Below are positions 3,592-62,220 of a DNA stretch of 64,000 nt, one piece after another. The notes under the pieces were generated by a model. That model was not told the DNA's origin. It made no database searches and saw only the letters and a list, made by a program, of their open reading frames with translations. Numbering within the stretch: position 1 is the first letter of the stretch; every line of letters begins with the position of its first letter. This stretch comes from Dudresnaya verticillata. Its lineage: Eukaryota. Position numbers and translations under genes: made by a program. Location: NCBI GenBank assembly GCA_977862235.1, contig OZ374563.1:1674001-1738000 (forward strand), given 5' to 3'.

Positions 3592-6500
3592 CTATCTACA
3601 AAGTGGGTCACAACATGCTTCCGACAATTCTTCTAGGTGAACCACTACGTTGTCGTACAGGTGCTTCGGAAGGATCGTCACGTGGTCCTTTTTGGAATTC
3701 ATGAACTGCAACATGTCTTGAGTCAAATCCCCGATAACATCGATCCTCGGGTTGAGCCGCACGGACACCTGAGCAACTCTTCCATCCCACACTTCGGGTC
3801 TGTCCGGTGCAGGAGACACCTTAAACACCTCGGTCGGTTCATGAGCTGGCCGAATTCCTTTGATGGTCAGTTCCGATAGCATCATAAAGTCTCGGAACAA
3901 GTAGAAGCCGGGTCCTAGCTTCAATTCCAGATCACCCAGCAGTTCTACCGTGAGTTCCTTATCCGTATCAACCACTTTGAGCTTGAGTTTCGGGCTCGGT
4001 ACTCTGAATAAATCACTGTGGATTGCTCTTTCATCATCGTTATAGCTCATCCTTAGATTTTCGAAGTCAATGCCGAGTTCCTTGATATGCACAGCATTCC
4101 GTGAAAGAATACAACTATACTGGTAGTTCACGTCATATCTTGTAACCGATACCATTGCGCTGTGCTGTGTCTCCTCAAACTGATACCCTCGTAACACGGC
4201 GCTCAGACCGTCACCTCGTATGCTCACCTTCGTCCGTTTTCCACTTCGCTTCAGCTTCTGCGCGGGATCCGCAACGTCACTATGAGAGCTCGACGAATTG
4301 TCCCCAACAGTAGTGACATGCAAATGATTCATATCATCACGGCTCTTAGATGCATCTTCCTTGGCAACGAGCGAGTCCCCAGAACGACCGTCGAACGAAT
4401 ACAGTCGCGGTTGGGTTTTTCGTTTCGCACCTTTCGATACCTCTTTCTCGATGAGGAGCTTGACCTCGCCCATTAACTTCTTCGCCTGTCCCGTAAGTCT
4501 AAGAATAGACTTCATCATGGTATGCGAAAATTCACTTTTGACGATTGTGCTCTCAACCACTATGGTTCGGCTAGGCACTGACACGACAGCTGCCAATGCA
4601 TCTATTCCAAGTTTCATTGTGTGGTTGTCATGCTGCCTACTCTCGAACTGAAGGCGGTTCATGATATTCGTCACCACGATGGAGCCCCCATGCTCAGTTC
4701 GGACACCTGACATGGCACAGTTGAACAGATTCTCCCTCAGCCGAAGCTTGCAACTAACAATGTCCCACTGCCCTCGGAGATTCAGGTCATGTAAGGAAAC
4801 ATGGACACTCGAAGGAATAGCGTGAGCGTAAGGATCTCTCCGCACATGACCAATTCCAAGATGCAAGCGCTCGGCAAAAATGTCGACTTGATTGGATGGA
4901 GACTCTTTCTTGGACGGCAGTTTGAGTTGCAAACGGATGTTCGGCTCGATAAATGAATCTTGCGTAGGCTGGTTGTCAACCCCCTCCTCTTTGACTACAA
5001 GTTTTGGACGCCCAAAAGCTATCATGACGTTTCTCTCTGATGCGGCCTTTGGTAGCGCAGAATGGGACTTCGGTTCCACTGCAGAACCCGGACAAGGTCC
5101 CGATTTCTTTCTTGCTGCTTGAATACGGCCTTGGGTCAGTAGTAGTGTCTTCGCGTCCATTAGTGCTGTAACTCTCGTAATATTCAAAAGCGTGTGTGGA
5201 GGGCGAACTGGACTAATCCCGTGCAGGACCCGTGCGTCGATGAGCCGCAAGCTTTGCTCTCTTGCGCCTTCGATCAAAGGAGTGATTTCCAAAGCTAGTT
5301 TCGGAGAGACACCTGTGACTACCGTCGTATGCCCTATTTCGTCTCCGAAGAGCGGCGCTGTGGTAACGGAAACAAGAATAGATGACGTTCGACCCGCAAA
5401 GAACGAAAACTTTGACTCCACAGAAGTATTACCCTCCTCCTGGGCTTTGTACAGAGATTTTCCAAAGCGGATTAGCACAGACGTGTCGCGGGAAATCTCT
5501 CTCGGCTCATTGGCAGGGTTGATCATAATGTCTTGAATCGCGTCTTCCTGGTCGGATGCAACGGCTCCAAATAGGTCTGTGAATACGTTGGCGACCCTCT
5601 GCAGGCACTGTCTTGGGAATTCGCCTTCACGACCGGAGAAGTCTACATCAATTAAATCAAACGTCTCACGTTCGTCACGAACCACAGCAACACTGAAAGC
5701 TGGAACCGCCAACTTCGATGTTTCAGAAGATCTAGGTCTGCCGAGAGAATTTGACGGGCTGGCCACAATGTTTCTTGCCGGTTCGTCGCCCTCCAACCCT
5801 TCTATGAAGCCACTGGTTCGAAGAATCTTCAAGCGCAAGCTTTCAAACAATAGTCGGCCGTGCCTTTCTGTGGTGTTTGAGAAGGAATCTCCAGTGATGC
5901 TTCCGGCCTTTGATAGCACGTCAGGGAGAGACCCCAAAATGTCGCGCGATTTCTCTGCGGCCTTCTTATTCTCCCGTCCATTCTTGGCCTCAAGAATGGC
6001 CATCACAACATCTTTCCGAGGACAGATTCTCCATGTGCCTGCCAGCATAATAAGCTGCACCGAGCCGAAATGTGCATTGCTGAGAATAGAAGGGGGTTCT
6101 ATGCCCAAAGTTATTCGAGAATTATGAGAACTCAGCATCGCCGTATTCTCCCACAGGATACCGATGAAATCGCTCTTCACCTCAAAAATGTTTCTTCGGG
6201 GACGCTCATTTTCACTATCAAACCTCTGTCTCACCAAGAAATGTAGCTGAGTGACTCGCAGTGCAAGTCTTGACGAAGAATACTCCTCAGTATTGAGAAG
6301 GGGAACTGCCAACTTAAAGAGCTGTACTTTCGCACCAACAAGAATAACTCTGTGCTCGAGAGGTTTCGTCTGATCTGCCATCTTTGGTGACTTTGGTGTG
6401 CGAGGTCTCGACGACGCGAGTGCAGCAGTATTAATAGCCTGAAGGTCGGATACGAACTCCTGCTCGTCAGCCCATACAGCGGCATCAAGCAACATTCTCC

Positions 6501-9500
6501 ACGGACGCAGCTGTCCAGATACTCCGTACACATCGACTCGAAATATGAACGTGTGTGTCAATTCTTCCTGCGTCTTCAGAACGTCAAGCCGGGAACGTTC
6601 CAGGGCGATTGACATACTGGCGCGACGTTCGATATTTCGAATGCCGGCCGTAGTGAAGTCTGAGTTTAGCATTCTCAGGAACATCAATGATATTCTTGGA
6701 ACACTTACTGCAGCGCGCAACTGCACTCCGGAACGAACCAACTTGTTCCACTCAAAAATTCCTGTTATTGCTTCCATGTCAAACCGAGCAACCACTTGTC
6801 CGCTTGCCAAACTTACTGACATTGGACGAATAGAAACATCCATTCTGACACCCTTCGTGCGTTCCCAAGCAGCGAAAGACCTTGTGAATGGAGTGGCACC
6901 AGCACTTTGGGACTGGATCTGGCCTTCTGAGTAGACCTCCTTTATATCGGCGCTTTTTTGTCTCGGAGTGACCGGAAGAAAAGCATCGTTGACATCCATC
7001 GTTGGGGTGGTTGCCGTGTTTTGAAATGCCATCAACCCAGCAACCGTGAATATGACGTGACGAAGACCTTGGACTGATGTGGAATTGATAAGAGGCTCAG
7101 CATTAACTTTGAGAAGAGTCGGTAGACCGGTTGTTTCACCCCACTGTACCCCACGTGCGTCAAAGCTTGGGAAGTGAAATGTTTCCTCTTCCGACCATGA
7201 AGGAGAAGACAAAGAGAGTCCATGCCCGTACAGTCGCAATCCAAGGGTCAGCGCAGCACTGTCGTCCTCTGATGCGACGACCGAAAAGAAGAGCCCATCT
7301 AGAAGATACGAAAGACTCATCGCACTATCTTTTGGATGGAAGCCTTCTAGTCTTATTCTCGAATCTTCGCACAAGAGGTCAAATGCCATTGTAGAGTACA
7401 GCGTGCGCCCGGCATACAGAATTCTGGCGGCTGACAGCCTAGTCGCCCTTGCCATCTCAGAAATGGAGGACTTTGTCGTCAAAAACGCAGATACGACGGC
7501 CTTCAGATCAGATTTAAACTCTTCTCTGAAGTTCAAGACCGACTTCAAGTCTGTTGCATGCAGCGTTGTCTTGAATTCCGAAATCCTCGCAGATGCGATC
7601 AATTTTGGTAGAGTTGTCGGTACAAAGCCCTCTACAACACTCATTGTAGCTCCAACACTGCCAATTGATCCTTTAAGTACACAGTTCGGATTATTGCCCG
7701 ACTTCAGGCGAGATGAAGATGCTGTAACAACCATGGAATGACTTCCCTTTGATGGTTCTGACATGAACGTCACACGCGGTTCTCCAAGGAAAAGGCTGAT
7801 ATCAGCTTCCTTCTCGTAGCTCGCCGATATTGAATCCGGCAATGATTTTCGCCGGTAGTAACGACTGACAATCTCCCGAAATGATACAAAAAGTGTTAGG
7901 GCCGGTCGTTTCTTAGGACGCAACAGCTTCGGTCGAACAGGTGTTCCCTGGTCTGAACTTCGAGGGACTCTTTGTGAGAATGGTTCGTTGGAAGTATTGC
8001 TCTGGACATTCGTAGCGCTTCTGCGTTGCAGTGGGGCTGAAGCCTCTCTTCTGTGTGTTGGCGAAACGGGATTATACTGAGAGCCTGCCGAAAGCATTTC
8101 CGCAGTCCGCGATTTCTCTGAGCGTGAGAGCAAGTCCACATCCGAAAAAGCCGGAGGGGCTTGAGTTGAAACAAGTACTCGGGCTTTGGACCGCTTTCGG
8201 GGAGGGCCGGTCTCTCCGGCAGTCGGGACTGCTACGTAGGCAAAGTATTGATTGTCTTCTTCGAACACATCGCCTCTATTGTACCTGCCCTTTGATCCCA
8301 ATACCGACTGTCCAGCATCAACGGATTTTGGGCGTTCTGTTCGCTTGTCCCGAATAATACCAGCAAATGAGACGTGTGCGTTACCATTGCGTTTTGGAAA
8401 CGTGTTTCCTTCTTCACTGTCGTCGCCTGCCGAGCTACGCACAAGGGGATCTGATTTTGGACTCTTCGCAGCATGGAATGTATCACTAGCGTTCCCAGTC
8501 ATGGCTTCAGCACCTCGATGCGACGTCCGCTGCGAACTGGCCCCGAGTTGTCTCACAGAAAATGAATCCTGACCCCCCGATGCGGTTCGCGCTCTCGATT
8601 TAGAACGGCTGTACCAGTGCCCTCGACTCTTCCTCGATGACTGGTGGCTTCTCAAAGGAAAATGGATTCTTCTCTTGTGTTCATGGGCTAAGGAAGCCTG
8701 CTCAAGAGAGGTTCTTATGCTGGCCTTAAGGAATTCTTCGTTCATGTAGCTATACGAAAATAGCTCCGATGATTCCTTTTCTCCAGACGCACGCTGCGCA
8801 TCGTAGCGAAGCATGGGCATTGAAATAGTAGCTTGGCGGATGAACGATGCGACCTCAGATACCATGCGCAGAGTATTTGCAGCAATGTCATCTCTGATTG
8901 ACAGCGAAATGACTCCGAACGTAGCATTGAAAACGTGTCCTTCCAAAGCAGATTCAGTTTGAGCTCGTGCTGTCGAGCCCCCTTTGCAAGCCATGATGTC
9001 AGCCCTTATGATATCCTCCCCAGCCAGTCGGAGAGAGGTCTTTCTCACCGTGACATCCAAGGAAAAGATGATTCCGTACTTCACATTCCCGCTCGATCCC
9101 GTGGCCTCCTCCACTACAAACTGTGGCATGTCACGAAGAATCGCAACACCTTTTCCCTTCCCCGCAATTTCACTTTCTCTATCTAGAATCTGCTGGCTTG
9201 TCTCAGACAAGAATGTCCGCACGTATCCAGCTTCCATCGACGTGAGTTCGGCCATCGACAGGGGCAGCATCCCATGCACCAGATCTTCTATTTGGCCGTT
9301 TTTCATAGCTGCCAAAGACGCGTTTTCAAGCGAAAGTGCTCTGAGCATGAGTGTAAAAATCGAGGCAATCCGACCAACACATGCGTACTGCTGTAAACTG
9401 CTGTTCGGCCCTCCTAAACTAAGCGACGCGACCTTGGCAACTATCGCTTGCTTATCTTCTCTGACAGTTTCTCGTGCAACCTCTTCTGACTCAGAAGTCT

Positions 9501-12500
9501 CGCCAATTTTGGATTGCTCCCGAAGGATGACGACTATCCCTGAAATCTCCAACAACCCGTCATTGTTGCAACCGACCATTACCTTGGGGACCGAAGAATG
9601 AATTACTCTTGTGTGATCGACTCTGGAGACGAGGCCTTGCTGTTCGATTCCTTCATTTCCTGTGCTGGCATCCGAAACCTCCGTTTTCGATGCATCAAGA
9701 ATGTTGAACCCAAATGGCACCGTTAAGAAAAATTCCTCATCCTGTTCTGCCCCACTTGAGAAGAGCGGGTCACCGCTATGGACTTCACCCGGGAGCAAAG
9801 GCGATAGAAACACAACTGTGAATGCCTTTGCCTCAAACCCACGGAGCAAAACGCCTGACCGTGCATCCTCTACAACAGACCATGCAGGTGGCCTTGTAAC
9901 TTCGTATAGGTGCCAGAGGTCTGTGATATCAGTAAGAGAAACTTCAGGGGCTGCTTGATTGGAGTCTCGCTTGCTCTGCGAGAATATAGCTGACTCTTGT
10001 CCCCAGATTCCTTCCTTGTATCGAATGGCTATGTCGTTAGCGACCTCCAAAGTTTCTGGTGAGACTATGACCTTTACGTTCGAGACAATGTTGATAGAGA
10101 ACGTTTCCAATTTTCCAAGACGTGAATCATGCTCCCGCACGTGTTTTGTCAAGATCGACGCACGATGAGACTGACGAAGGTAAATCCACCAGTCAAGGTC
10201 GATTTCATCTTCTTCCAATGGTCCTGCATCTTCTGCCTCAAGTCCTGTCTCTAAACACCATACGGGCGTTTCCCCTCGCACCTTTTGGCTCTGTCCGGAC
10301 ACATGATGTCGTTGCAATTCTGCTACCGTCTGAGCCCACATTCGTGGTCGCGATTCGTGAACAATCTCCAGTGTAACATCTCTTACTGCAGCCGCCGTCC
10401 GCATCAATCCTCCACCCTGGAATGACCCATGCAGATTTCCATCTCTGACCAGCATTGCATGAGCAACTTGTGCTCGCAATGTTGCCTCGTCAATCCAAGG
10501 AGCGAGTTTCCCACCCCATGACATCAGCAGAGCCATGGAGACGTCAGGGAGGGTGAGCCTCGAATGTGCTGCAACTGTCTCCGATGAGAGGTTTGACAAG
10601 AAGAAGCGCAAACCCAATGGCGCTCGAAAGTGGGCAACTCCTGTTAAAAAAGTTGGGGCACTGCTTTGTTTTGTAGACCTTCTCCGGGATCTCTCGTGGC
10701 GCAGCATAGAAAGTTTGCTTACTTGGCCGGATCGCTCAGCAGAAGCATTGCTTGAGGCGGACAAGACGAGCAAGTCTACTTTGCCAACAACAACCTCGAT
10801 ATTCTCAACTGAGAGCAGTGCTGCAGCTGCGGCCTGGTCCTCAAAAAGAGGGTCAGGTACACCTGCAATACCTACCCGCGATGCGCACAATACATCACTG
10901 TCGTGAATGCAACCCGTCAAACTACCGATTCCAATAAGGAGTTGGGACTTATACGGTCCCCAATCAGCAGTTGCCAAAGAGCGTTTCCGAACTTGGAACT
11001 GCTCAATTGATATAGTTGGAGCAGTTGAGTCATCAGAGCGGGAACCGCCTTCTGATTCGCCTCTTTGCTCAACCGGTTCACGATAGTCATAGTGGAGTGT
11101 GACACGCTTATCCCTTGACTCAGGCGAACAGACTACATCAAGGCCTAGCCGAGATCCACGAACAGAACAAACAAACCTTCCACTCTCCAGAGAAGACAAA
11201 TTCTTGCTTCGCTTGTTGAAGGGGCTAAGGGCATGGGGTAGGTCATGAAATCTAGCCACGAGAGACTCAGTTTGGAAACCTACGGATATTAGCTCGTCCA
11301 TAGCTTTCCTGTGCTCAATCATCAAGAGTGTTTGGCCCGCAGGGAGCCCTAATACGACGCATTCCTTAAGAAACGGATATCGGCGTTCGTTCAAGACAAC
11401 ATGCGCAACGTCTCTACGCTTCGAGTGTAGTCGATCTCTTTCCACTGCTGTGAGCATATGAGCCCCAGCGCCCGCGTAGTTTCTCGAAAGATTGAGAAAG
11501 TGCGTAATGTGGTGCGGGTTAATGTCCAAAGCTAGTGACGATGCTCTTATATTAATGTCACTGCGGTCCACAGCATCAGGCAGCGATGGGAGAGAGGAAT
11601 TGAGAAAAGTCCGTCCTTCATTCAGAACAACCTTTCCAGATATGCTGAGTACTTTCCCAGCCTGGACAATTTCGGCTACATGTGTCCGTTCTCGCGGCTT
11701 GGCAGACTTGGTGTCAGAATGATGTAGATGACTAGCAAGCGTTTCCAACTGACTACGTACCCTCCTGGCTAACGAAGGTGCTCGACCCTTATGGTGGAGG
11801 GATCTATATGAGTCAGAGGGTCTTCCGGCACCTTCTCCATGCGGTTCAGCGGGGCTTGCTGCCGGTTTGTGCGGAAACGGAAGCTCGATTTTCCCCGTTG
11901 CATTTGGAAGGGAGAGAGTCCATGACACAACAGTGAAGTCCGGTAGAAACTCCGTAGGGACGCTAGGCGTTAGGACCAGCTCGGCGTTTTCTCCACAAAT
12001 CCTCATCTTACCATATTTGTCTGCTTTCAATGTATGTACATCATCCCATGCGTTGTCATGGCTGCAGGAAAAGATCACGCTGTACCCGTTCTCTGCCAAC
12101 ACTCTTGTCGTTTCCTTAAAAGGAACAAAATAACGAACATCTTGCGGCTTCTTCATGCAGCCCTGTATGTCTGCAATCATATCGTCGATCACTCGTTGCA
12201 TATCTGGCAAGTACACAGTTTGGCTATCTCTCAGTATGATATCGACTATGGAAGAGTGTACTCCGTTCCAAACCTGAGGAAGCTGCAAGGCGCGATTCAC
12301 CTCGGCACTGGACGCCTCAACTAGTGGCATATCAAGGACACCTCGTACTACTGCGCTCACAGCTCTTAGAGAGACATTCGTTCTTTGCTCAGCTCCAATA
12401 CGATACGGCACTTCAGTTCGAACTGAGACATGTCTTGCATGTATATCAACCGAACTCGGGGGAAGCCCAAATTCTACAGGTCTTTTGTCAGGCGGTGGAT

Positions 12501-14241
12501 CCTTTCCACTTCGCCTTGGCCATCTTCTTACGTCGAGGGATCTTAATGACGACCAAGACATTTCCCGTGGCTTAAACGGAATGGATATCAATGGGGCGTC
12601 TGCAGCGGTGTCGCTCTTCCGAGACGACAATGGCACAACAGGTGTCGCATCTACCTCTATCTGTATTCCAGTTGCAGAGCGCTTCCCGTCCTGTGATTGT
12701 GCCTTCATAGCAAGGGGCATGAGGTCATAAAACGCCGGTTGCAAGCGCTCCATGACTCGTTCGATATCGGCAATGGCCTTGGTGTCATACGAGAAAGACG
12801 CACCACGAAGCAATACTGACACCCGACAGACTGGTGGCGGATATGAACTCGTGTCCTCCGCATATGTCTCCGAAGATATGTCAGCAGGACCAGAACGGGT
12901 TCGACCCACAGCATCCTGACCTGCAACGTCTCGACCTGCAGCAGGGCCGGGCTCATCAAAAACATAGTCGACGACGGCAGTCTCAGAGGACAGGATATTC
13001 GCGCAGGGGAGTGGCTGTGACCTCCGCGCCTCCCACGCAGTAGCTCTGTTCTGATAGCGAAAGCTAGGACGGCGCTCGTTCAATGACGAGCGTGTAGGGG
13101 ACTTCGCGTCACTCCCAGAGGTAAACTTGCGAGGCCTCTTCGAGCTTAAGGAGCGTTGGCTAGTCCTGTTTCGTTCTCGGAATGGATCACTGATGCCCTT
13201 ATGGCCCAGAGCCATGACACGTCTAATCATCCGGTCTGTGTTGTCCTGCAGCACGTCCGGAGCCAAAGGAGGGGTTGGTCCCAGCACCGGTTCAGCAAGT
13301 TTGCGCACGGTCTCGCGGTCTGCGACGGAAACACGAAGGCCAGAGAGGCGTACGCGGAAGCGCTTGCGACATTCGTCAATAGGGCATGCGGCTGCACCGT
13401 ACCGATACCGAATCTTGGCCGAGTCGACGACGATGCGGATGAGCGGGCTTTCCCCCATGTCGCAAAAGTAGAACGAGCCACTAGTAATACGCAATGACAC
13501 GAGCTCAGCAATGCGCTGGCGCAGCGGTTTAGCATCCGTGGACTGTTCGGATTCGTACGATGAGGCGGAAGAGTCATGGCGATTAGGCGCAGTGGAGGTC
13601 TGCGTGAGCTCGGCAAGCTCGTTCACTGGGACGTCAAGGCGGCCGTTGCGCGCGGTCTTGGCGAGGGCGAGCACGCGGTTAACATGTTCGTAGTTGGCCT
13701 GCATGTTGACCAGGCGCGCGCGTAGGCCAACTGCAATGAGCGAGATGAGCGGCGGAGGTTCGGAAGCGTTTGCATCGGTCGGGCCGGCCGAGCGACGCCA
13801 CCAGCGGCGAAGACGGTAAAACAGGCGCTTCGGGAGGAAAGCAGAGTTTTGGCGCGCGAGCTCCTGCTCGGCGTGCGCGACCGGGTCGAGTGTGTGGGCG
13901 TCATCCACGGCGAGCAGCTGGCGGAACTGGCTCTCCGGGGCCTTGCGCCACCAGCGGATCTGTAACACGAGCTCCTCAGCTGTGATGGTGCCATCTGGGA
14001 CGGTGTAACGGAGTGAGTGGGCAACGGCGCGGCCGGCTAAGGGGTAGATGTGGAGGGTGGGGACGACAACGTGGAAGGCGCCGCGAGAAGCGCGGTTGGC
14101 GAGGAAGGCAAGGCCGCGGCCGAGCAGGCGGGGGAGGAGGAGGACGACTAGTACGACCCAGCAAACCGAGGCAAGCGCGAGGAGCGAGAAGGTGAGCAAG
14201 GATGGGTCATCTGCAACCTGTTGTCGCGTGGGGGCCTCCAT
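3592..14241 (-). CDS. Csf1/KIAA1109 (BLTP1/Tweek)-like bridge-like lipid transfer protein, intronless
   Basis: Uninterrupted 3549-aa ORF. An N-terminal TM anchor is followed by HIYPLAGR..HSLRYTVPDGTITAEELVLQIRWWRK, resembling the Csf1 N-terminal SLLGGRIFFK..RY....I.I..G.ITWRYW pattern. The body is long and rich in predicted beta-strand, and the C-terminus reads LNPRIDVIGDLT. Family call by eye. Confidence 0.75.
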   Translation of the reverse strand: MEAPTRQQVADDPSLLTFSLLALASVCWVVLVVLLLPRLLGRGLAFLANRASRGAFHVVVPTLHIYPLAGRAVAHSLRYTVPDGTITAEELVLQIRWWRKAPESQFRQLLAVDDAHTLDPVAHAEQELARQNSAFLPKRLFYRLRRWWRRSAGPTDANASEPPPLISLIAVGLRARLVNMQANYEHVNRVLALAKTARNGRLDVPVNELAELTQTSTAPNRHDSSASSYESEQSTDAKPLRQRIAELVSLRITSGSFYFCDMGESPLIRIVVDSAKIRYRYGAAACPIDECRKRFRVRLSGLRVSVADRETVRKLAEPVLGPTPPLAPDVLQDNTDRMIRRVMALGHKGISDPFRERNRTSQRSLSSKRPRKFTSGSDAKSPTRSSLNERRPSFRYQNRATAWEARRSQPLPCANILSSETAVVDYVFDEPGPAAGRDVAGQDAVGRTRSGPADISSETYAEDTSSYPPPVCRVSVLLRGASFSYDTKAIADIERVMERLQPAFYDLMPLAMKAQSQDGKRSATGIQIEVDATPVVPLSSRKSDTAADAPLISIPFKPREMSWSSLRSLDVRRWPRRSGKDPPPDKRPVEFGLPPSSVDIHARHVSVRTEVPYRIGAEQRTNVSLRAVSAVVRGVLDMPLVEASSAEVNRALQLPQVWNGVHSSIVDIILRDSQTVYLPDMQRVIDDMIADIQGCMKKPQDVRYFVPFKETTRVLAENGYSVIFSCSHDNAWDDVHTLKADKYGKMRICGENAELVLTPSVPTEFLPDFTVVSWTLSLPNATGKIELPFPHKPAASPAEPHGEGAGRPSDSYRSLHHKGRAPSLARRVRSQLETLASHLHHSDTKSAKPRERTHVAEIVQAGKVLSISGKVVLNEGRTFLNSSLPSLPDAVDRSDINIRASSLALDINPHHITHFLNLSRNYAGAGAHMLTAVERDRLHSKRRDVAHVVLNERRYPFLKECVVLGLPAGQTLLMIEHRKAMDELISVGFQTESLVARFHDLPHALSPFNKRSKNLSSLESGRFVCSVRGSRLGLDVVCSPESRDKRVTLHYDYREPVEQRGESEGGSRSDDSTAPTISIEQFQVRKRSLATADWGPYKSQLLIGIGSLTGCIHDSDVLCASRVGIAGVPDPLFEDQAAAAALLSVENIEVVVGKVDLLVLSASSNASAERSGQVSKLSMLRHERSRRRSTKQSSAPTFLTGVAHFRAPLGLRFFLSNLSSETVAAHSRLTLPDVSMALLMSWGGKLAPWIDEATLRAQVAHAMLVRDGNLHGSFQGGGLMRTAAAVRDVTLEIVHESRPRMWAQTVAELQRHHVSGQSQKVRGETPVWCLETGLEAEDAGPLEEDEIDLDWWIYLRQSHRASILTKHVREHDSRLGKLETFSINIVSNVKVIVSPETLEVANDIAIRYKEGIWGQESAIFSQSKRDSNQAAPEVSLTDITDLWHLYEVTRPPAWSVVEDARSGVLLRGFEAKAFTVVFLSPLLPGEVHSGDPLFSSGAEQDEEFFLTVPFGFNILDASKTEVSDASTGNEGIEQQGLVSRVDHTRVIHSSVPKVMVGCNNDGLLEISGIVVILREQSKIGETSESEEVARETVREDKQAIVAKVASLSLGGPNSSLQQYACVGRIASIFTLMLRALSLENASLAAMKNGQIEDLVHGMLPLSMAELTSMEAGYVRTFLSETSQQILDRESEIAGKGKGVAILRDMPQFVVEEATGSSGNVKYGIIFSLDVTVRKTSLRLAGEDIIRADIMACKGGSTARAQTESALEGHVFNATFGVISLSIRDDIAANTLRMVSEVASFIRQATISMPMLRYDAQRASGEKESSELFSYSYMNEEFLKASIRTSLEQASLAHEHKRRIHFPLRSHQSSRKSRGHWYSRSKSRARTASGGQDSFSVRQLGASSQRTSHRGAEAMTGNASDTFHAAKSPKSDPLVRSSAGDDSEEGNTFPKRNGNAHVSFAGIIRDKRTERPKSVDAGQSVLGSKGRYNRGDVFEEDNQYFAYVAVPTAGETGPPRKRSKARVLVSTQAPPAFSDVDLLSRSEKSRTAEMLSAGSQYNPVSPTHRREASAPLQRRSATNVQSNTSNEPFSQRVPRSSDQGTPVRPKLLRPKKRPALTLFVSFREIVSRYYRRKSLPDSISASYEKEADISLFLGEPRVTFMSEPSKGSHSMVVTASSSRLKSGNNPNCVLKGSIGSVGATMSVVEGFVPTTLPKLIASARISEFKTTLHATDLKSVLNFREEFKSDLKAVVSAFLTTKSSISEMARATRLSAARILYAGRTLYSTMAFDLLCEDSRIRLEGFHPKDSAMSLSYLLDGLFFSVVASEDDSAALTLGLRLYGHGLSLSSPSWSEEETFHFPSFDARGVQWGETTGLPTLLKVNAEPLINSTSVQGLRHVIFTVAGLMAFQNTATTPTMDVNDAFLPVTPRQKSADIKEVYSEGQIQSQSAGATPFTRSFAAWERTKGVRMDVSIRPMSVSLASGQVVARFDMEAITGIFEWNKLVRSGVQLRAAVSVPRISLMFLRMLNSDFTTAGIRNIERRASMSIALERSRLDVLKTQEELTHTFIFRVDVYGVSGQLRPWRMLLDAAVWADEQEFVSDLQAINTAALASSRPRTPKSPKMADQTKPLEHRVILVGAKVQLFKLAVPLLNTEEYSSSRLALRVTQLHFLVRQRFDSENERPRRNIFEVKSDFIGILWENTAMLSSHNSRITLGIEPPSILSNAHFGSVQLIMLAGTWRICPRKDVVMAILEAKNGRENKKAAEKSRDILGSLPDVLSKAGSITGDSFSNTTERHGRLLFESLRLKILRTSGFIEGLEGDEPARNIVASPSNSLGRPRSSETSKLAVPAFSVAVVRDERETFDLIDVDFSGREGEFPRQCLQRVANVFTDLFGAVASDQEDAIQDIMINPANEPREISRDTSVLIRFGKSLYKAQEEGNTSVESKFSFFAGRTSSILVSVTTAPLFGDEIGHTTVVTGVSPKLALEITPLIEGAREQSLRLIDARVLHGISPVRPPHTLLNITRVTALMDAKTLLLTQGRIQAARKKSGPCPGSAVEPKSHSALPKAASERNVMIAFGRPKLVVKEEGVDNQPTQDSFIEPNIRLQLKLPSKKESPSNQVDIFAERLHLGIGHVRRDPYAHAIPSSVHVSLHDLNLRGQWDIVSCKLRLRENLFNCAMSGVRTEHGGSIVVTNIMNRLQFESRQHDNHTMKLGIDALAAVVSVPSRTIVVESTIVKSEFSHTMMKSILRLTGQAKKLMGEVKLLIEKEVSKGAKRKTQPRLYSFDGRSGDSLVAKEDASKSRDDMNHLHVTTVGDNSSSSHSDVADPAQKLKRSGKRTKVSIRGDGLSAVLRGYQFEETQHSAMVSVTRYDVNYQYSCILSRNAVHIKELGIDFENLRMSYNDDERAIHSDLFRVPSPKLKLKVVDTDKELTVELLGDLELKLGPGFYLFRDFMMLSELTIKGIRPAHEPTEVFKVSPAPDRPEVWDGRVAQVSVRLNPRIDVIGDLTQDMLQFMNSKKDHVTILPKHLYDNVVVHLEELSEACCDPLCR

Positions 14242-15585
14242 GGTGGGACGTGAGGAGGCGAGAGAGAGAGACGGGGAGGTGAGCTTGGGAAGAAAGGGGG
14301 ATGGGACGTGCGGGGCGGAAGCTGGGGGTAAGCAGGGGGGTCGGTGTTGAAGGTAACGGGGATGGGCAGATGCTCTACTGTATCGAGATGGGCGCTTGGC
14401 ACTATTTTCAGCTTTTCGGTTGGGAGAGGGTCCGCCATGAGCCTACCGTTCAGGCCAGAATATTCAGCTCGACAACACGTTGCATACGTGTCTCAATGTG
14501 TCCCGTATTTGAGCTCGCTGATCGGGCCAATGCGCCGTGAATTGCTTGGCTAACTGTCCGTTCCGAAGGGAGCTTTTGACTGTACATGCAACGCCAGACA
14601 CTATTTGAATGGATTCCAGACCGCGAAACTTAGTACATGTGCCGGACTACTCTCCCTTTGTATAATGCCCGTGACATTGGTTGGCCCTCAAAGCACCTTG
14701 CCGCACACACCTGTTGGTACTCGGTGCCAGCTCTAGCGCCACCCACGCATAGATTGTTGTATAGGTGTATACGCAACAGTTCAAGGAAAGCCAAGAAGCG
14801 AAGTAGGGAGAAAGTCAAGTTAGTCCTCAAGGCATACATCTAAACAATTCAACATGCAATTGGCAATACAGAAAACTGTGGATATCTTTATTTGTTTTCT
14901 TCGCGCTGCTCCCGCCGAAAGTCCATTCTCCCAAATCATAATAATTGTCGCTGCCAAGATATCCCAGTCTATAGGACCCATAGACTGGAAATAAAAGGGC
15001 AATCTCCGAAAGCCTCCGGAGAAGTTTGCTCTCCAGAGTTCCTTGTACAGCACCACACGGGCCATATCACCAACCGGTCGGGCCCAATGGTTGCTCCGTC
15101 CTGAAACGACTCTTATTTGCACCGTTGGCGTTGGCAGCTCCCCACCTCCTCGTCTTCTGCGAAGCACTTTGGACAAGTGGTTTGTATACCTTGTAGTGTA
15201 TATACAGATTACAGGTGTTGTACTATGAGTATGCTGGAGTTTTACAACTTGTACATTACAAAAAGAGGCTTGCGCTTTTTAATACCATGCGTGGCGCATT
15301 TGCTTCCTTCACGGAAGACTTTGTTTCCAGTGAAGATGGTATTGCGATCTTTGTCACACGATCCTACTTCCCCGAAAAACGTTTCTCCGATCGAAATAGA
15401 ATTGGGAAAGCAGCACAGCTCATCCCAGCATTGCGCATCATGAACATGAACAACAGTGTGGCTGAGAAATCAGTTTGTGAATTGCAGTAGTACCCGCTGT
15501 GCAATCTACTGCTGGCGTCCCGCTGGCAACCTTCTTTCTAAGCCTTTCTGGTTTGCTTGCACCCAACACAGTGTACACAACACAG

Positions 15586-15630
15586 TACAACACAACACAG
15601 TACAACACAACACAGTACAACACAACACAG
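15586..15630 (+). repeat. Minisatellite, 3 x TACAACACAACACAG (plus degenerate partial copy upstream)
   Basis: Three exact 15-nt units at 15586, 15601 and 15616, immediately beyond the tRNA terminator. Confidence 0.9.
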
Positions 15631-15631
15631 C

Positions 15632-15638
15632 AAAAAAA
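15632..15638 (-). terminator. RNA polymerase III terminator (T7) of the permuted tRNA
   Basis: TTTTTTT on the minus strand about 20 nt after the end of the tRNA 5' half. Confidence 0.8.
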
Positions 15639-15657
15639 TAGAAGCGTAGTGGGTGCT

Positions 15658-15748
15658 TAGCGCCTTAGACCACTCGGCCACGCTGCCCTATCCCGTGACA
15701 GCGGTGAGATTCGAACTCACGCATACAAAGTATACTACGACCTGAACG
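15658..15748 (-). tRNA. trnL-CAG: Circularly permuted tRNA-Leu(CAG): 3' half 15748-15696, 8-nt spacer 15695-15688, 5' half 15687-15658
   Basis: Minus strand reads CGTTCAGGTCGTAGTATACTTTGTATGCGTGAGTTCGAATCTCACCGCTGTCA-cgggatag-GGCAGCGTGGCCGAGTGGTCTAAGGCGCTA. Swapping the halves gives a complete 83-nt class II cloverleaf: acceptor GGCAGCG/CGCTGTC plus A73, D arm GCCG-AGTGGTCTA-AGGC, anticodon stem CTACG/CGTAG with loop TT-CAG-GT, variable arm TATAC-TTT-GTATG, T arm GTGAG-TTCGAAT-CTCAC. Confidence 0.93.
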
Positions 15749-15800
15749 TTGCGCGCACCTAACACTGTAAATGCTTCTGATGGTGAACAGAAATTGGTCA

Positions 15801-15809
15801 TTATTTAAA
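15801..15809 (-). promoter_or_regulatory. TATA-like element upstream of the permuted tRNA
   Basis: TTTAAATAA on the minus strand about 52 nt upstream of the tRNA 3' half. Confidence 0.5.
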
Positions 15810-16392
15810 GCTGGGCCAAGCTCTGCCGGCCTCAAAACCGATTTTTTCCAAAAAGGAAAGAATTTTTTTCAGAAAATAATGGGAGAGTGTAATACGTCTA
15901 CTGTACTTGGATGTATATCATTTGCTTTCTCGTGTCAACATCCAAGATTTCCACCAACAAGCTGTGGGGAGCTTCATGAGGATGACGATATCAGGCAAGT
16001 CATCTGAGAGGACACATACCTGGCGAATCCCATTAATCCTTCCGTGCTAATCTTAGGCCAAGGGGGCGTGGACCGACACAATCCACTGGAGACTCGCGAC
16101 TCTCTCTCACGGCGATGAATTCTTTACTGCCACGTCTTGCCAGTCACTAAAGCATCGCTCTTCCGAGCATCTTCAACCGAACTACGTTGAGCTGAATCTC
16201 TCTGGAACTGGAACGAAGACAACCAAGTCCAGTACGGCAACTCTAGCTAAGCGCTACCAAGCTGGAATCGAACCTTTCAAGGCATCTATGTCCCGCAGCC
16301 TGCGCACTTCCGCCGCGAACATGGGCACGTTATACGACACATCGCAGTAAGTAAACATTCGCTTCTACTGCAACCATCTAGAGAACCTTCTT

Positions 16393-17229
16393 TTACTCGA
16401 CAGTAAACTGCTTTCGACTTTCCTCAATAACCAAGCTTTCACCCAGCGAGCTAGTCCCAGTGACGTCAGCGACAACGACGCCACGAACATCAACCCGCAA
16501 GCGCCAAGGAGTAGGACCCTCTCCACAACTGCGAGTATGCTCGACTTTAACCTCATAACGCCCCTTCTGCAGCCGCTTCTCACTTACGAAAACGACGCGC
16601 TCTTGTGCAAGCGAGGAGCGCCTCCTCCCACACTTCCTTCTATTACGATCCTTGAGCAACCGCCCGCCAGCTGCCCTCCTCCTCCCGAAGAACAGCTCCA
16701 TGCCAGACGGCGCCCGCACAAACACGTCCAAATCATCATTCGACCGCCACTCCAGCGTGATCTGCACCACGGACACCTTGACATGAAACGCGACACAGTC
16801 CCGCTGGCGCCCACCGCCGGTCACAGTGCGCCCGCCTTTCCGCGCGCGATAGCGCAACACGGGGAGGCGGACGCAGGCGCGGTGCAGCTTGGGGACGTAG
16901 AGCCTGGACGTAACAGAACTGCCTTGGCTGTCCCGCGCGACGGTGAGCACGTTCGCAGGCAACGACAGGTTGGACACGGGCTGCGCGACCATCCGCGGCA
17001 GCGTAACGACGGCCTCGCCCACGCGGTCGACCACCAGCCCCGACACGCCCAGGCGGCACAGAGGCGGCGACGCAGGCACGTTCGCGGCGGATAGACGGAC
17101 CAGCGCGCGCCCGGGGCAGAACGCGAACAGGCAGCGCGGGCCGCACGCGACGCGCGCGGCAAGCGCGGGCGCGGCGTGCTGCAGCAGCGCACTGAGGACG
17201 ACGGCGGCGACGGCGGAGACGGTACGCAT
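16393..17229 (-). CDS. Secreted protein with Cys-patterned N-domain and C-terminal YfaP/DUF2135-like domain
   Basis: 278 aa; signal peptide MRTVSAVAAVVLSALLQHAAPALA; motif VQITLEWRSNDDLDVFVRAPSG...GRLLKD...QERVVF...KGRYEVKVEH, typical of DUF2135/YfaP (L.W....DLDLHV..P.G). Confidence 0.7.
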   Translation of the reverse strand: MRTVSAVAAVVLSALLQHAAPALAARVACGPRCLFAFCPGRALVRLSAANVPASPPLCRLGVSGLVVDRVGEAVVTLPRMVAQPVSNLSLPANVLTVARDSQGSSVTSRLYVPKLHRACVRLPVLRYRARKGGRTVTGGGRQRDCVAFHVKVSVVQITLEWRSNDDLDVFVRAPSGMELFFGRRRAAGGRLLKDRNRRKCGRRRSSLAQERVVFVSEKRLQKGRYEVKVEHTRSCGEGPTPWRLRVDVRGVVVADVTGTSSLGESLVIEESRKQFTVE

Positions 17230-18495
17230 GGTGGTGGTGGCAGGTTTCGCTCGCGCGTACGGTAGGTACGTGCTGCGAGCGTGCGAATGCGCGAGAGAAG
17301 GGGCGCGCGAGAGAGGGAGCGCGCGACGGCGGAGGCGCTGGGTGGGCGCCGCGCGCCGCCGCGCGCCGCCGCTCGCGCGGCGTTGTTATGTGGATAGCGA
17401 GGCGATGGAAGGCGGGCGGTGAGGGACGGACGCGATGTCGACAGTCGGTCGGCGCGTATGGAAGTCTGACTGCTGCACGCGCTGGGGCGTCGTGCTGTTG
17501 TGTGTTCCGTGCATGCCTCTCGCGGACCGCTTCCCCCGTCGCGCACCGTTACAGCGCGGAGTGGTGGACGTTGACGCTTCCCCGCGCGACGTGTGCAGCC
17601 GGCCAATCGCCCCGCGCGCTGGTCCGCGATCGTGTTTCTGCGGCGCTACTGATTGGGCCGCTGCCGTGCACCCATCGGCAACTGCTCGCGGCCTGGCGTG
17701 ATCTTCGCGGACAAACCGCACCTCTGAGCCTTCCAGCTCGAGCATCTGCGACTTGTTCCGGTGCAGCCGCGCGGCCTCCCCCGCAGGGCGCTTCTACGCT
17801 CTGTTGATGTTGACAGCAATAGCATCGGCCCGTTCTTCCGGCCTGCTTGAAGAGCAGTCCATGCGTGATGGGCGTGCAGTCTGGCCCGCGGCATGCCCAC
17901 TCCGTACGTACTAGCTGTAGGCAGCTGCGGCTGTGCGACGCGCGTGCGCCATCCTGGCGCTTCGCAGGAGACGCGACGCCACGCGGGGACATTGCAAACG
18001 TGTTCGTACCGTGGTCCCTGTTGAAAATCCTTCACTGGGTTTACCTCATATGTACAGTACCTCATGCATATGTTATCGTCGACCCGCGCGGAGGTTTGAC
18101 GCACTTGTTATCGACGATACATGCGATAACGCTGCGCGCCTACCGCTGCCAGAAGCCAAGAAGAGAGGACGCTATTGTCAACACGTCGCGCAATGCCCGC
18201 AGCGTCCGGCAAAGCCAACCAGGCTCGCAACCGCAGCTCCCAGCTTCGGAACTTCCGTGCATCCGTCTCTGTCAACAGCCTCCGCTGCTTCCACTGTACC
18301 CTACTTTTGGTGCGGCACGTTTGCTTTGGCGTCATACTGTAGCACGACACGGCTATACACCGCCGTAGCCACAGACTTTGCCGGTTTTACACCTTAGTAC
18401 AGTACCACAACATCAGGGGCCCAGCGCTTCTATGCTTTCGCTCAAACTGCAGTCTACGGAACTCTGTACATACTCAATACGCAAACCGTTTCATT

Positions 18496-30157: not shown

Positions 30158-31459
30158 TCAAACAACTCCGTTTGTTGTCCTCGACTGCAGATCCTCCTCG
30201 TGTGCTTTGCTACCAGCCTCGCCCTTCGGCGTGACGAGTACGGCGACATTGATCTTATCTACGACCTTGTCATTCATAGGAATCCCGCCCTCTAATAAAA
30301 TCTGCTGAGCGTCCATTCCCTTAAACCGTTTTAGGTCCTCACTCGAATAGTTGCTAATCCCGCGTGCCAGCTCCAGCCCATCCGTCCCGCGGATGCAAAC
30401 CGCAGAGTAGGCGTCAAAGTTGCGGTGGCAGTCGACGACCCCGACGGTGCGCAAAGGGGACCCGGAGCGCAGCAGCATGGCTGCACGAGTGGAAATAATG
30501 ATCTCGCCGCGGGGCGGCAGGCAGTTCGAGATCCACTTCTTGCGTTCTATGTCCAGAGGGGTGGCGAGCGGCTCGAAGACAGTGCCAAGGCGTTTAGCGC
30601 GGTCATGTACAAAGTCTAGCACGCGCGGAGGATGGCTCCCGTGCACCAGACATACGCGTACGCCGGCTGCAGTAGCCAGCCGGGCCGCGGTGATCTTCGT
30701 CTGCATGCCGCCCGTCCCCCACTGTGTGCCTGTTGCGTTGGACTGCAGATTCACCTTGAGGGACTCGATGTTCTCCACGACGTCGATGGGTGTCGCGGAC
30801 TTATCCACGCGTGGGTTGGCTGTGTACAGGCGCTCCACGTCCGTCAGCAAGAAGAGCCATTCAGCACCCACCGCTGTGCTGACCACGGCTGAAAGCCAGT
30901 CGTTGTCGCCATACTTGAGTTCCTCTGTGGCCACCGTGTCGTTCTCGTTAACAATAGGAATAACGCCCATGGACAGAAGTGCATTAAGTGTGTTCTTCGC
31001 GTTGAAGTATTGGTACTCGTTGCTCATATCAGTAGCTGTGAGAAGTACCTGTGCGACCCGCTGGTTGGCCATGCCGAGAAGATGGTCGTACGTCTTCATA
31101 AGCACACTCTGCCCAACAGCAGCATATCCTTGAATAGTTGCGAGTATTCTAGCCCGCTCCTGCTTGGGCGTGTCGGTCGACACGGTGGGACGCTTCTTCA
31201 CGCCGAGCTCGCGACATCCAACGCCGACGGCACCGGACGTGACTAGGATGACGTGGTACCCATCGCGGCGTAACGCGAGCAAGGTATCGACGAGGAGCGC
31301 GAGGGTGGACACGGCGAGCTCTCCCTCACCGGCCTGCAGATTGCGGCCGGCGTGCGAAGAGACGGTGTGCGCGGCGCCGGAGCCGCCGTCGCGCATAAGC
31401 GTCGACGTGCCGATTTTGACGACTACGATGGGTCGGTCAGACAGGTTCTCGCCCGTCAT
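30158..31459 (-). CDS. proB: Glutamate 5-kinase with C-terminal PUA domain
   Basis: 433 aa; VVVKIGTS, VTSGAVGVG, AAVGQ, VAQVLLT, IPIVNENDTVAT.E.KYGDNDWLSA, LTDVERLYTANP, GTGGMQTKITAA, ELARGISNYSS. Confidence 0.96.
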   Translation of the reverse strand: MTGENLSDRPIVVVKIGTSTLMRDGGSGAAHTVSSHAGRNLQAGEGELAVSTLALLVDTLLALRRDGYHVILVTSGAVGVGCRELGVKKRPTVSTDTPKQERARILATIQGYAAVGQSVLMKTYDHLLGMANQRVAQVLLTATDMSNEYQYFNAKNTLNALLSMGVIPIVNENDTVATEELKYGDNDWLSAVVSTAVGAEWLFLLTDVERLYTANPRVDKSATPIDVVENIESLKVNLQSNATGTQWGTGGMQTKITAARLATAAGVRVCLVHGSHPPRVLDFVHDRAKRLGTVFEPLATPLDIERKKWISNCLPPRGEIIISTRAAMLLRSGSPLRTVGVVDCHRNFDAYSAVCIRGTDGLELARGISNYSSEDLKRFKGMDAQQILLEGGIPMNDKVVDKINVAVLVTPKGEAGSKAHEEDLQSRTTNGVV

Positions 31460-38280: not shown

Positions 38281-38938
38281 CGCGGCGGCGGGTGGGGTCT
38301 GGACGGCGGCGGCGGCTGCAGCAGCCGGGCGGCGGCGGCTGCAGCAGCCGCAGCAGCCGCGGCAGCGGCGCGGCGGTGCGACGGCCTCGACGCGGCCGCG
38401 CGGCGCAGCCGGGGCGCGTGGGGGCCGTTGCGTGCGGTCCGCCGCGCAAGCTGTGACGCGCGGGGGATAATATCTGCCGGGGCCGCGCATCAAACGCATC
38501 GCCGCATGCGCGGCCCGCTGTAATGCCCGTCACGCGGATCAACCCGCCGCCGCCCGTTTCGTCACGTTCCCGCCCCGCTCGCCGGGCCTCGCTTACACAC
38601 CGGGCCGCCCCTACCGCAACTCCGCCCCCCCCCCCCCCCCCCCCATGCACACGCACACGCACACACACACTCAAGTCGGACAGTTGCTCCCGACACCCCC
38701 TATCTTGTCCCCAGCCTTGCCCTACCCCGACACCCCCACCCCCCACTTCCTTCCCATTCCCCCTCCAGCCCCTCTGTGTGCCTCACGCGCGCGCGAGTCC
38801 CCACCATCGCCCCATCCCTGCTGCTGCTGCCGCCGCCGCCGCCGCCGCCGCCGTCGTCGTCTCGGTCTTCGCGGCTTCGTCCGTACCCACGTGCGCACCA
38901 CCAGCCCGCACCGGCCCGCTCGGCCCCGGCGCGCCGCC

Positions 38939-46450: not shown

Positions 46451-47347
46451 TCACAACACCTCGAAATCGAACCTTGACCCTGGTGCGCTCATCCCACCGT
46501 CACCGTCTGCTACCCCGCTGCGCTCCCGCACCACCACACCGCCAATGTACACCCTGACTGTCCAGCCAGTGCGTCCCTCGCGGCAGTTGTCAAACTGGCT
46601 GACGCGCACCTTGTACCGGCCCTTCTCCAGCGGCCCAACCCTCCCAAACACGGCTGCCTCCCGCCCGCCCACGGACGTATCACTACACGCGCCTGCGTTA
46701 CCATCTCCGAGTAGCTCTCCGCTTGCGGTCAGCGGGGCCATGTAGTACACCTCTTCTCCTCCGGGGGCCGTGACATGCAGGTCGAGATCGTCCTTCGAGT
46801 CCCACGTCAGCTCCACACCGACTGCGGGAACATACGCCTCGAAGGCAACGCAATCCCTTCTGACCGGCCCCCCATCGACATGCTTGACATGTCCGCGGTC
46901 GGAATAGCTGTACCTGCTCATCGGCAGCACATAGCACCCGCCGTCAACCGCCTTGAGCTGCGCAGGCGAGGCGGCCTGTCGCGCAATGCTGACGCCACGG
47001 CCAGTTGAAAGGCGCACGGTCTTGAAGAAGGTCGGCGGCAGGGCGTCGCGCGAGATCGGGCTGGGCGAGGTGCCGTCCATGCGCACGGCCTCGCTGCTTT
47101 CGGCGTTGAGCAGGCGGCGGCCGGCGCGGCACAGCGGCGGCGCGTGCGCCACGTCGGCCGCGAACAGCGGCAGCGACGTGGACCCGTCACAGAACGTCAG
47201 GCGGCACGCCGCGGCGCACGGGTCCGGCGCCAGGTTGGGCGACAGCGCGCGCAGCTGCGGCGCGCGCGGCTTGGCGCTGCGCGCGGCGCGCAGCAGCGAC
47301 ATCAGCAGCAGGGCGGACAGCGGGTGCAGAGGGTGCGCGCGCGGCAT
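46451..47347 (-). CDS. Secreted protein with C-terminal YfaP/DUF2135-like domain (paralogue of 16393-17229)
   Basis: 298 aa from MPRAHPLHPLSALLLMSLLRAARS; VGVELTWDSKDDLDLHVTAPGGEEVYY...REAAVF...KGRYKVRV; shares the C...C...FC, PPLCR, EAV, C..LP..RY and RDCVAF pattern with its paralogue. Confidence 0.75.
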   Translation of the reverse strand: MPRAHPLHPLSALLLMSLLRAARSAKPRAPQLRALSPNLAPDPCAAACRLTFCDGSTSLPLFAADVAHAPPLCRAGRRLLNAESSEAVRMDGTSPSPISRDALPPTFFKTVRLSTGRGVSIARQAASPAQLKAVDGGCYVLPMSRYSYSDRGHVKHVDGGPVRRDCVAFEAYVPAVGVELTWDSKDDLDLHVTAPGGEEVYYMAPLTASGELLGDGNAGACSDTSVGGREAAVFGRVGPLEKGRYKVRVSQFDNCREGRTGWTVRVYIGGVVVRERSGVADGDGGMSAPGSRFDFEVL

Positions 47348-48703
47348 GGCGGAGGGCGGGGCGAGGGCGACGGTGATTGCGCGGCGTGGCGATGGCGGGG
47401 GGGCGCGGGGCGCGGGGCGGTGGGGGGGAATGGTGACATAAGTAGGGGGAAACGGCTGGGAGCGGCGATGTGTGATCTCTCGTGGGGTGAGACTGTGACT
47501 CTGAGAGTGGTGGCGGGATGCGGCAGCGGCAGGAGGGATGGCGTGCTGCAGCGATAGATGCGGCTCCAACGTAACCGCAAATTGCGCGGGCAGTCTCGAG
47601 TGATATTGCGGAAAGTTGTGCGGTTCTTATGACTTCGCTAATGTGATGAACGTTACGAAGCGCTGTTGCGGCTCCCGTCGGGTGCGTATGTGATCACAGT
47701 ACGGTAGACGCACTGCTACCTGTACGTCATGTACCTTTGAAGGTATAACACTATTATACTGCACAGGGCAGCTACAGCGGCTTCGCAGTCGCGTCTCCCA
47801 ATATCTACGCGATGACACGCACAGCACTCCCACCTTCCTCCTTGCAACCGCCAGTCTTGCTCCTCGCTACTTGTTGTTTGCGTTATCCAAAGAATAACAA
47901 GAAAAAAGCAAGTGGGACTAGACTACACTAGAATCAAGTGGGCCAAGTGCAAGTTGCCGAGACCGGTTTGCTTGTTGTAGTCCCCCCAGCTGTAGAGTGT
48001 GCATCAGTTCCAACCGAATATCAAACAGACCTTGACCCTTGCAAGGTATAGCAAAAAGTCGGATACGAAAATGTCGCCATTCTCGAAAACGCTCCGCGTG
48101 ATTCGCACTTCCTCCATGTCCATCATTTCGAACACATTATTATGCAAACACTTGTTGTACTATCCAGGCATGTCCCAATGGCAGCAAACAAAGTCGCACT
48201 ATCATTCCATCCCGGCCTCAGTAACACTTTGGCCTTGTGGTACCACCTTATTAACACCATCGAAAAAACTTCAGACGGGAACGAATGTATTGGGCCCATC
48301 ACTAGCAAACTGGCTTTGGGGCCTTTACATATTTGCAGCCCCAGCTCAGCAAGCCTTTCGCACCTCTTCATCATTTCAGCCCACTTCCGTAGAGATTAGA
48401 GTATGTAATTCCCAGAAAACTCGGGGCAAGAATGTGGACTCCATATCGCAGGTTAACGAGACTTCGCCAGAGTCTATCATTTTCATACCTTCTGTAGGGC
48501 ACAGCACTATTTTTCGCCCATTGCTTGCATCGCTTCTGATTTTCAATGAGTTCCGTAGCAAACTTCTTCTTAAGAAGGCAGGAAAAGAAGGGGGGGAAAT
48601 TAAACTCTCCGAAGATGTCGAATCCAACGCGTTCAGGAGCAGATACATAACCTGATTTCAGAGCCATTGTGGGGACCGCGTTACATTACTGGCGACGTCT
48701 GAA

Positions 48704-52111: not shown

Positions 52112-52162
52112 GTAGCTTGGAATCGGCACATGACAGTCGGTGATGAGGTTAAAACATCTGTG

Positions 52163-53739: not shown

Positions 53740-53746
53740 TATATAA
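53740..53746 (+). promoter_or_regulatory. TATA box upstream of the 281-aa ORF
   Basis: TATATAA about 150 nt before ATG 53892, followed by a pyrimidine-rich leader. Confidence 0.5.
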
Positions 53747-53891
53747 CGATTGAATTCAGACTTCGCTCCCCCGCCTTGCTTTCCTGCGCCTGCTATCCTC
53801 AGCACCTGGTTCTAACTCACGCCCGCCCTTTGCACCATTCCATCTCGAATCTGAGCTGCTCAGCCCTAACATCAATCCTCTTCCAACTACC

Positions 53892-62169: not shown

Positions 62170-62220
62170 GTAGCTTGGAATCGGCACATGACAGTCGGTG
62201 ATGAGGTTAAAACATCTGTG

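Follow-up and report, generated by a model that had tools for sequence, protein, structure and literature searches.

How would a tRNA be assembled from a locus in which the 3' half precedes the 5' half, and at which position would the two halves be joined? The question is raised by a tRNA-Leu(CAG) locus in a 64,000-nt stretch of Dudresnaya verticillata DNA (hereafter the window, to which all positions refer). We consider it probable, from the sequence and from modelled folds, that this is a circularly permuted gene whose precursor would be cut at a relaxed bulge–helix–bulge (BHB) motif and whose pieces would be joined at 29/30, within the anticodon stem. Sources bearing a PMC number are cited throughout from their accessible parts.

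Gene layout and the predicted tRNA

Read on the minus strand, the locus consists of a TATA-like element, a leader, the 3' piece, an 8-nt spacer, the 5' piece, a trailer and a T7 run (Table 1). The 3' piece holds the anticodon CAG (15744-15742), the long variable arm, the T arm and the 3' strand of the acceptor stem, and does not encode CCA. Joined to each other, the 5' and 3' pieces form an 83-nt tRNA-Leu(CAG) cloverleaf with a long variable arm (ARAGORN), which has the consensus bases U8, G18G19, U33 and U54U55C56. ARAGORN run on the window did not detect the permuted gene in place, and an Rfam search of 14000-17500 gave no match.

Table 1. Features of the putative permuted tRNA-Leu(CAG) gene, in the order of transcription
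Feature	Positions	Strand	Basis and remarks
TATA-like element TTTAAATAA	15801..15809	-	53-61 nt upstream of C30; sequence match; likely an external Pol III promoter
Leader strand of outer helix h' (GGUGC, -11..-7)	15755..15759	-	Pairs with 15656-15652, probability 0.80-1.0
Leader strand of central helix H (GCGC, -6..-3)	15751..15754	-	4/4 Watson-Crick pairs with G24-C27, in the 29/30 register only
Leader AA (-2,-1), bulge/loop nucleotides 1-2 at the 3' splice site	15749..15750	-	Predicted cut 15749^15748
tRNA-Leu(CAG) 3' piece, C30-A73	15696..15748	-	ARAGORN cloverleaf once joined; single copy in the window
8-nt spacer closing the acceptor stem	15688..15695	-	Sequence; variable in length and letters among related contigs
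tRNA-Leu(CAG) 5' piece, G1-A29	15658..15687	-	Cloverleaf; G24-C27 (15663-15660) double as the tRNA strand of H
3-nt bulge U28-A29-A(+1)	15657..15659	-	Unpaired probability 0.86-1.0; predicted cut 15658^15657
Trailer strand of outer helix h' (GCACC, +2..+6)	15652..15656	-	Pairs with leader GGUGC
T7 run	15632..15638	-	Sequence match; likely Pol III terminator

As in circularly permuted tRNA genes, the 3' half lies before the 5' half on one strand, across a short spacer free of a terminator, and sequence matching places a TATA-like element upstream and a T run downstream; upstream TATA-like elements have been described for permuted genes (PMC3978253). The pattern T[AT]TAAATA occurs four times in the window and runs of T7 or longer occur seven times, both strands being counted. 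A split (trans-spliced) tRNA gene was rejected, since only 8 nt separate the halves and this spacer holds neither a T run nor a TATA-like element, and so was an ordinary gene with an intron at 29/30, since the exon order is inverted and each piece occurs just once in the 64-kb window. No ORF of at least 150 aa in the window overlaps the gene. In a set of seven ORFs from the window that have Pfam matches, CUG is the leucine codon used most (96/298); a tRNA-Leu(UAG) could also read CUG, by wobble.

Two proteins encoded in the window identify the host as a florideophyte red seaweed. The best named match of the glutamate 5-kinase (30158-31459) is Agarophyton chilense (67%), ahead of Pyropia, Porphyridium and Galdieria, and a quick 52-row tree places it within a 31-row clade (SH-aLRT 96) with Agarophyton, apart from Pyropia; a mitochondrial carrier has named matches in Agarophyton (75%) and Chondrus (74% over part). 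Other features of the window are a 15-nt tandem repeat of 4.5 copies directly after the T7 run (15564-15630), a 3549-aa ORF without a Pfam match downstream of the tRNA gene (3592-14241, minus strand), and a 6.8-kb repeat of 99.96% identity (47167-53942 and 57225-64000) that reaches the window end, carries PanB-like and phosphoacetylglucosamine-mutase ORFs, and is either a recent tandem duplication or an assembly artefact. The single tRNA that ARAGORN calls in the window, a tRNA-Val (38358-38447), sits within repetitive, GC-rich DNA and is probably a false call.

Predicted junction helices and position of the joint

The preliminary description of this DNA had paired the leader with the last nucleotides of the 5' half and with the trailer as an outer helix GGUGC/GCACC, a central helix GCGC/GCGC and two 3-nt bulges. 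Its letters and coordinates are correct and both helices are present: when the precursor is folded from five assumed starts, the pair probability is 0.80-1.0 for the outer helix h' and 0.86-0.99 for the central helix H, and the UAA bulge is unpaired with a probability of 0.86-1.0. The leader and trailer thus offer the elements of a relaxed BHB, namely four of four pairs in H, a 3-nt bulge and a 5-bp h'. Of the two bulges described, UAA alone is a true one: on the AAC side, C30 is predicted to be mostly paired in a local hairpin (unpaired 0.12-0.15). The exon-side helix h, of which a strict hBHBh' motif needs at least two pairs, has none in the 29/30 register, so that the motif had rightly been called relaxed but the helix that had been called weak is absent. 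With h lacking and C30 largely taken up in a hairpin, the motif is, in these models, a relaxed HBh' and not a strict BHB; HBh' is among the relaxed forms named in PMC3978253 and PMC6379350. A repeat of the anticodon-stem pentamer in the trailer (15649-15645) was rejected as an intron end or decoy, its pair probability being 0.00-0.01, and it is absent from the related trailers shown.

The two helices do not weigh equally. Taken by itself, H is weak support, since GCGC is self-complementary and since the leader resembles the tRNA itself, positions -6..-1 being identical to tRNA 24-29 at five of six letters. The outer helix is the independent part of the support for the permuted model. Out of 1,000,000 random leader/trailer draws from the window, only 11 give H together with a Watson-Crick-only 5-bp h' in the 29/30 register, and 49 do so when G-U is permitted in the outer helix. 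The earlier argument that the BHB supports the permuted model independently is therefore retained for h' but not for H.

Seventeen junction registers, from 21/22 to 37/38, were compared. Full anticodon stems (5/5 pairs) are obtained in 28/29 and 29/30 only, and 29/30 is the only register that combines 4/4 pairs in H with five pairs in h', the values for 28/29 being 3/4 and 0. The two registers yield identical mature RNA because the leader nucleotide -1 is A, like A29, and therefore the choice of 29/30 rests on BHB geometry, not on the product sequence; the earlier statement that the cuts rebuild the anticodon stem at 29/30 is true, with the qualification that 28/29 rebuilds it too and is excluded by geometry only. 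The tRNA splicing endonuclease cuts between bulge nucleotides 2 and 3 (PMC12397907), in agreement with the rule given in the preliminary description, and the predicted cuts therefore fall at A29^A and A^C30. None of the known permuted types I-V (20/21, 37/38, 50/51, 59/60 and 15/16) fits the locus, and a 37/38 join would destroy the CAG loop.

A joint at 28/29 in the same permuted gene, with a 5' piece ending at U28 and the last A of the leader becoming position 29, would give the same mature tRNA, and it is consistent with the retention of A at -1 in the related contigs that reach it and with one contig of run X6 (see below) whose leader gives its best 4-bp helix in that register, if the 5' piece is unchanged (by hand). 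We nevertheless regard it as unlikely: besides its incomplete H and missing h' in the window, it would need, with the observed helices, cuts after the first bulge nucleotide, contrary to the geometry of PMC12397907, and the A at 15658 is retained in every related contig reaching it, whereas +1 varies.

If the joint is at 29/30, the use of G24 and C25 in H implies that the D-stem would be partly open during endonuclease action. D-stem pairs have a probability of 0 in the folded precursor, and a splicing endonuclease that acts independently of the tRNA body is likely on these models, since H takes G24/C25 and the D-stem is lost in the fold. An open D-stem is not certain, because a fold that keeps it, with h' also retained, is only 3.9 kcal/mol less stable than the best fold, a cost that tertiary contacts could offset.

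We propose, from the pathway of algal permuted tRNAs in Cyanidioschyzon merolae (PMC3978253), that Pol III, directed by the TATA-like element and stopping at the T7 run, would make a single transcript, in which the leader would pair with the trailer and the splicing endonuclease would cut at A29^A and A^C30. Ligation of A29 to C30 would produce a circle, from which RNase P and tRNase Z would excise the 8-nt spacer, and CCA would then be added. A D-stem opened as described above would point to an endonuclease that recognises local structure instead of measuring, like the usual ruler, from the folded body of the tRNA. The gene might also be functional and processed otherwise, by a ruler-type endonuclease acting on the folded body, by another nuclease, or with pieces that stay unligated or are joined in trans; the conformer that keeps both D-stem and h', the 3' site without an exon-side helix, and the related run X8, which has no 3-nt bulge in register, all point in that direction. 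This seems to us quite unlikely, as circular intermediates have been reported for algal permuted tRNAs (PMC3978253), as the 8-nt spacer is free of promoter-like and T-run elements, and as a D-loop insertion found in X6 forms a perfect 4-bp helix under the register rule applied above (by hand); a nick in the anticodon stem would, moreover, be unlikely to serve decoding.

Related contigs and wider scans

Relatives were found by a shared-word run search, which listed 24 public runs, each with a small word share, and eight of these were examined as contigs. Among these contigs there was no circle, no sequence read through the joint and no mature tRNA. The permuted order (3' piece, spacer, 5' piece) is present on single contigs in seven of the eight runs (X1, X6, X8, X10, X18, X20 and X23), which represent seven studies and seven organisms; we infer that the source organisms are seaweeds, because the tRNA sequences are near-identical. 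The contigs of the eighth run, X19, hold an ordinary Leu(AAG) gene only, which is not counted as absence of the permuted gene. The differences listed for the related contigs lie in the spacer, which holds most of them and also varies in length, at 15727 and 15729 of the variable-arm loop, and at 15672, position 16 of the D-loop. Judged by these comparisons, the gene is real and conserved as a permuted tRNA-Leu(CAG).

The related contigs also bear on the 5' piece and on the flanking helix. The identity of four of them ends exactly at 15658 (A29) and five others match 3-10 nt beyond; the +1 letter in those four is U, U, U and G, never the C that position 30 requires. Both sides of h' are fully visible on one contig in only one of the seven runs, X18, where a single 16.9-kb contig has GUCAC/GUGGC vs GGUGC/GCACC in the window (by hand). 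Three of the five positions are changed on both strands and all of them pair, two as Watson-Crick pairs and one as U-G, the chance that three random position pairs all pair being about 0.05. Two contigs of X6, presumptively matched by depth, give 9/10 pairs in register (by hand), two h' pairs are visible in X1 and X10, and the leader is cut off in X20 and X23. Run X8 shows neither the in-register outer helix (its first pair would be C/A) nor a 3-nt bulge in register; a perfect 7-bp helix is found shifted by 7 nt (by hand), and no T run occurs within the first 30 nt of the trailer. Covariation of the flanking helix, which had been suggested as a check, is thus seen in the compensatory changes of X18 but not in X8, which is out of register. 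T runs of at least five lie downstream of the trailer in X1, X6, X10, X18 and X20, and in X20 and X23, guessed to be RNA runs, the sequence is flanked and unprocessed. Conservation of H is partly selected, because relatives whose leader is identical are the ones that a shared-word search tends to pick; the h' changes fall outside the letters matched by that search. The stretch covered by the related contigs ends short of the TATA-like element.

These comparisons weigh on the idea that the locus is a non-functional relic of a tandem duplication, made of the inner halves of adjacent tRNA-Leu genes, with GCGCAA as a decayed copy of 24-29. The resemblance of the leader to tRNA 24-29 is what such an origin would leave, the palindromic GCGC makes H obtainable without selection, and tandem duplication is one proposed origin of permuted genes (PMC3978253). 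We hold a relic to be very unlikely, since the same layout recurs in seven of eight runs, where changes cluster in the spacer and in loops, since h' lies outside the tRNA-derived sequence and shows double-sided changes in X18, since a distant X6 copy keeps its 7-bp acceptor stem through two changed pairs, and since T runs follow the trailer. The preferred reading remains a permuted gene in use, joined at 29/30.

Two contigs of run X6 carry variant copies. In the first, a 155-nt contig (window 15653-15724), the gene is permuted and its D-loop is enlarged by a 12-nt insertion; placed at 20a/20b, the insertion gives 4/4 Watson-Crick pairs by the register rule, one of them using a U16-to-C change, and on its sequence this gene is likely both permuted and intron-containing. 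A 7115-nt contig (window 15702-15749) carries a more distant permuted tRNA gene with a 9-nt spacer and a different leader, its trailer and anticodon being out of view; its 7-bp acceptor stem is fully paired despite the two changed pairs (by hand), and its leader fits 28/29 better than 29/30 (by hand). In X1, X8, X10, X18, X19 and X23 there is an ordinary tRNA-Leu(AAG) gene in which much of the 5' piece and of the T arm recurs, and this gene is likely, by its sequence, a close paralogue of the permuted one.

A pattern scan of metagenomes gave 45 loci with 24 distinct sequences, 20 of which are ordinary neighbouring tRNA genes, three permuted Leu genes apparently joined at 37/38, and one locus L033; no relative of the permuted tRNA-Leu(CAG) is among the 24, and pattern scans of prokaryote genomes and viral contigs likewise gave none. 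L033 (1-853) was rejected as a permuted gene and judged degenerate, decayed tRNA-Leu pieces in a tRNA cluster mimicking the permuted order. The permuted metagenome genes, which have short spacers and this apparent 37/38 joint, are tRNA-Leu(UAG) and tRNA-Leu(AAG) (L007, L016, L027; L018, L038, L041; L025, L030), anticodons that are absent from the 2014 table of permuted genes (PMC3978253). Applied to L007 as a positive control, the register rule gives its best value, 3/4, at 37/38; in L018 and L025 the script misplaced the stem.

Novelty and comparison with known systems

The 2014 table of 34 permuted genes gives junctions at 20/21, 37/38, 50/51 and 59/60 and a doubtful type V at 15/16 (PMC3978253); the preliminary description had named the first four and omitted the fifth. 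Permuted tRNA genes are known from unicellular algae, nucleomorphs and one archaeon (PMC3978253, PMC12633428, PMC4033280, PMC4494063). In the accessible parts of the literature we found no 29/30 permutation in work on permuted tRNAs (PMC2237900, PMC6379350, PMC4033280, 10.64898/2026.07.10.737489), and no permuted tRNA gene of a florideophyte in work on permuted tRNAs, red seaweeds and macroalgae. Both the 29/30 permutation junction and the florideophyte host group are thus probably new; this is not proven, because Soma 2007 and Maruyama 2010 are represented there through reviews and the Auxenochlorella junctions lie outside its view. We lean slightly towards a broader reading, in which florideophytes would share a conserved, overlooked permuted tRNA-Leu(CAG) joined at 29/30 and cut by an endonuclease that does without the folded tRNA body, some copies having a D-loop intron or maybe a 28/29 joint, and in which the gene would be missing from published seaweed tRNA sets.

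If this is true, no earlier permutation junction would lie in an anticodon stem, and multicellular algae would have their first permuted tRNA gene; a conserved seaweed example would alter the known distribution of these genes and would suggest that red seaweed annotations miss the tRNA gene that serves a much-used codon. Work on C. merolae has left open by what means the splicing endonuclease of a eukaryote cuts at sites other than 37/38, and whether a mature tRNA body is required (PMC3978253). An anticodon-stem junction with D-stem bases in the helix would put both points to a direct test, and a ready series of natural substrates would be at hand in the copies with a shifted outer helix, an extra D-loop intron or a possible joint at 28/29.

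The nearest known system is the type II tRNA-Leu(CAG) gene of C. merolae, a red algal nuclear gene for the same isoacceptor with the 3' half first, which likewise has a TATA-like element upstream, a T run downstream, BHB-type termini and no encoded CCA, and whose spacer is 9 nt compared with 8 nt in Dudresnaya (PMC3978253). The junction is at 37/38 in C. merolae and would be at 29/30 in Dudresnaya, and the hosts are a unicellular extremophile and a florideophyte seaweed, respectively. The permuted junctions of C. merolae are 20/21, 37/38, 50/51 and 59/60 (PMC3978253), and its 42 introns lie at 37/38 and in the D-stem, D-loop, variable arm, T-stem and T-loop, with none in the anticodon stem according to the accessible part of PMC3728597. 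The type II genes of Ostreococcus, Micromonas and chlorarachniophyte nucleomorphs are also permuted, class II tRNAs (Leu, Ser) being common among them, but their junctions are at 37/38 with hBH motifs, apart from one doubtful 15/16, in contrast with 29/30 in Dudresnaya (PMC3978253, PMC4494063); one permuted gene of O. lucimarinus has an intron at 27/28, its junction being still 37/38 (same sources). The Auxenochlorella genes share the permuted order (PMC12633428).

Within the same algal class, Chondrus crispus has tRNA introns at 20/21 and 58/59, whose splicing was confirmed by RT-PCR (PlantRNA 2.0, 10.1101/2021.12.21.473619). The host is a florideophyte and splicing takes place away from 37/38, as would be the case in Dudresnaya, but the Chondrus genes have the ordinary order and their introns are at loop positions. 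Because these introns are spliced, such endonuclease activity exists in this class; the broad-specificity endonuclease that the preliminary description had seen implied by the BHB was, for florideophytes, already implied by Chondrus. No permuted gene of Chondrus is reported in the main text of PlantRNA 2.0 (10.1101/2021.12.21.473619), and C. crispus, the reference florideophyte, is without permuted tRNA genes according to the accessible part of a 2026 review (PMC13578239).

The position itself is known from archaea, where 29/30 is an intron site and the split site of Caldivirga maquilingensis tRNA-Ala(CGC/UGC) (PMC4090602), and where a split tRNA-Lys is joined at 30/31 (PMC3218864). The suggestion that 29/30 may be a new type therefore applies to permutation, for which no report was found in the literature cited above, but not to BHB-type processing at this tRNA position, which the archaeal 29/30 introns and split tRNAs would share with Dudresnaya. 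The archaeal cases are cis introns in genes of normal order or halves from separate loci, whereas the Dudresnaya gene is one eukaryotic locus with its halves inverted.
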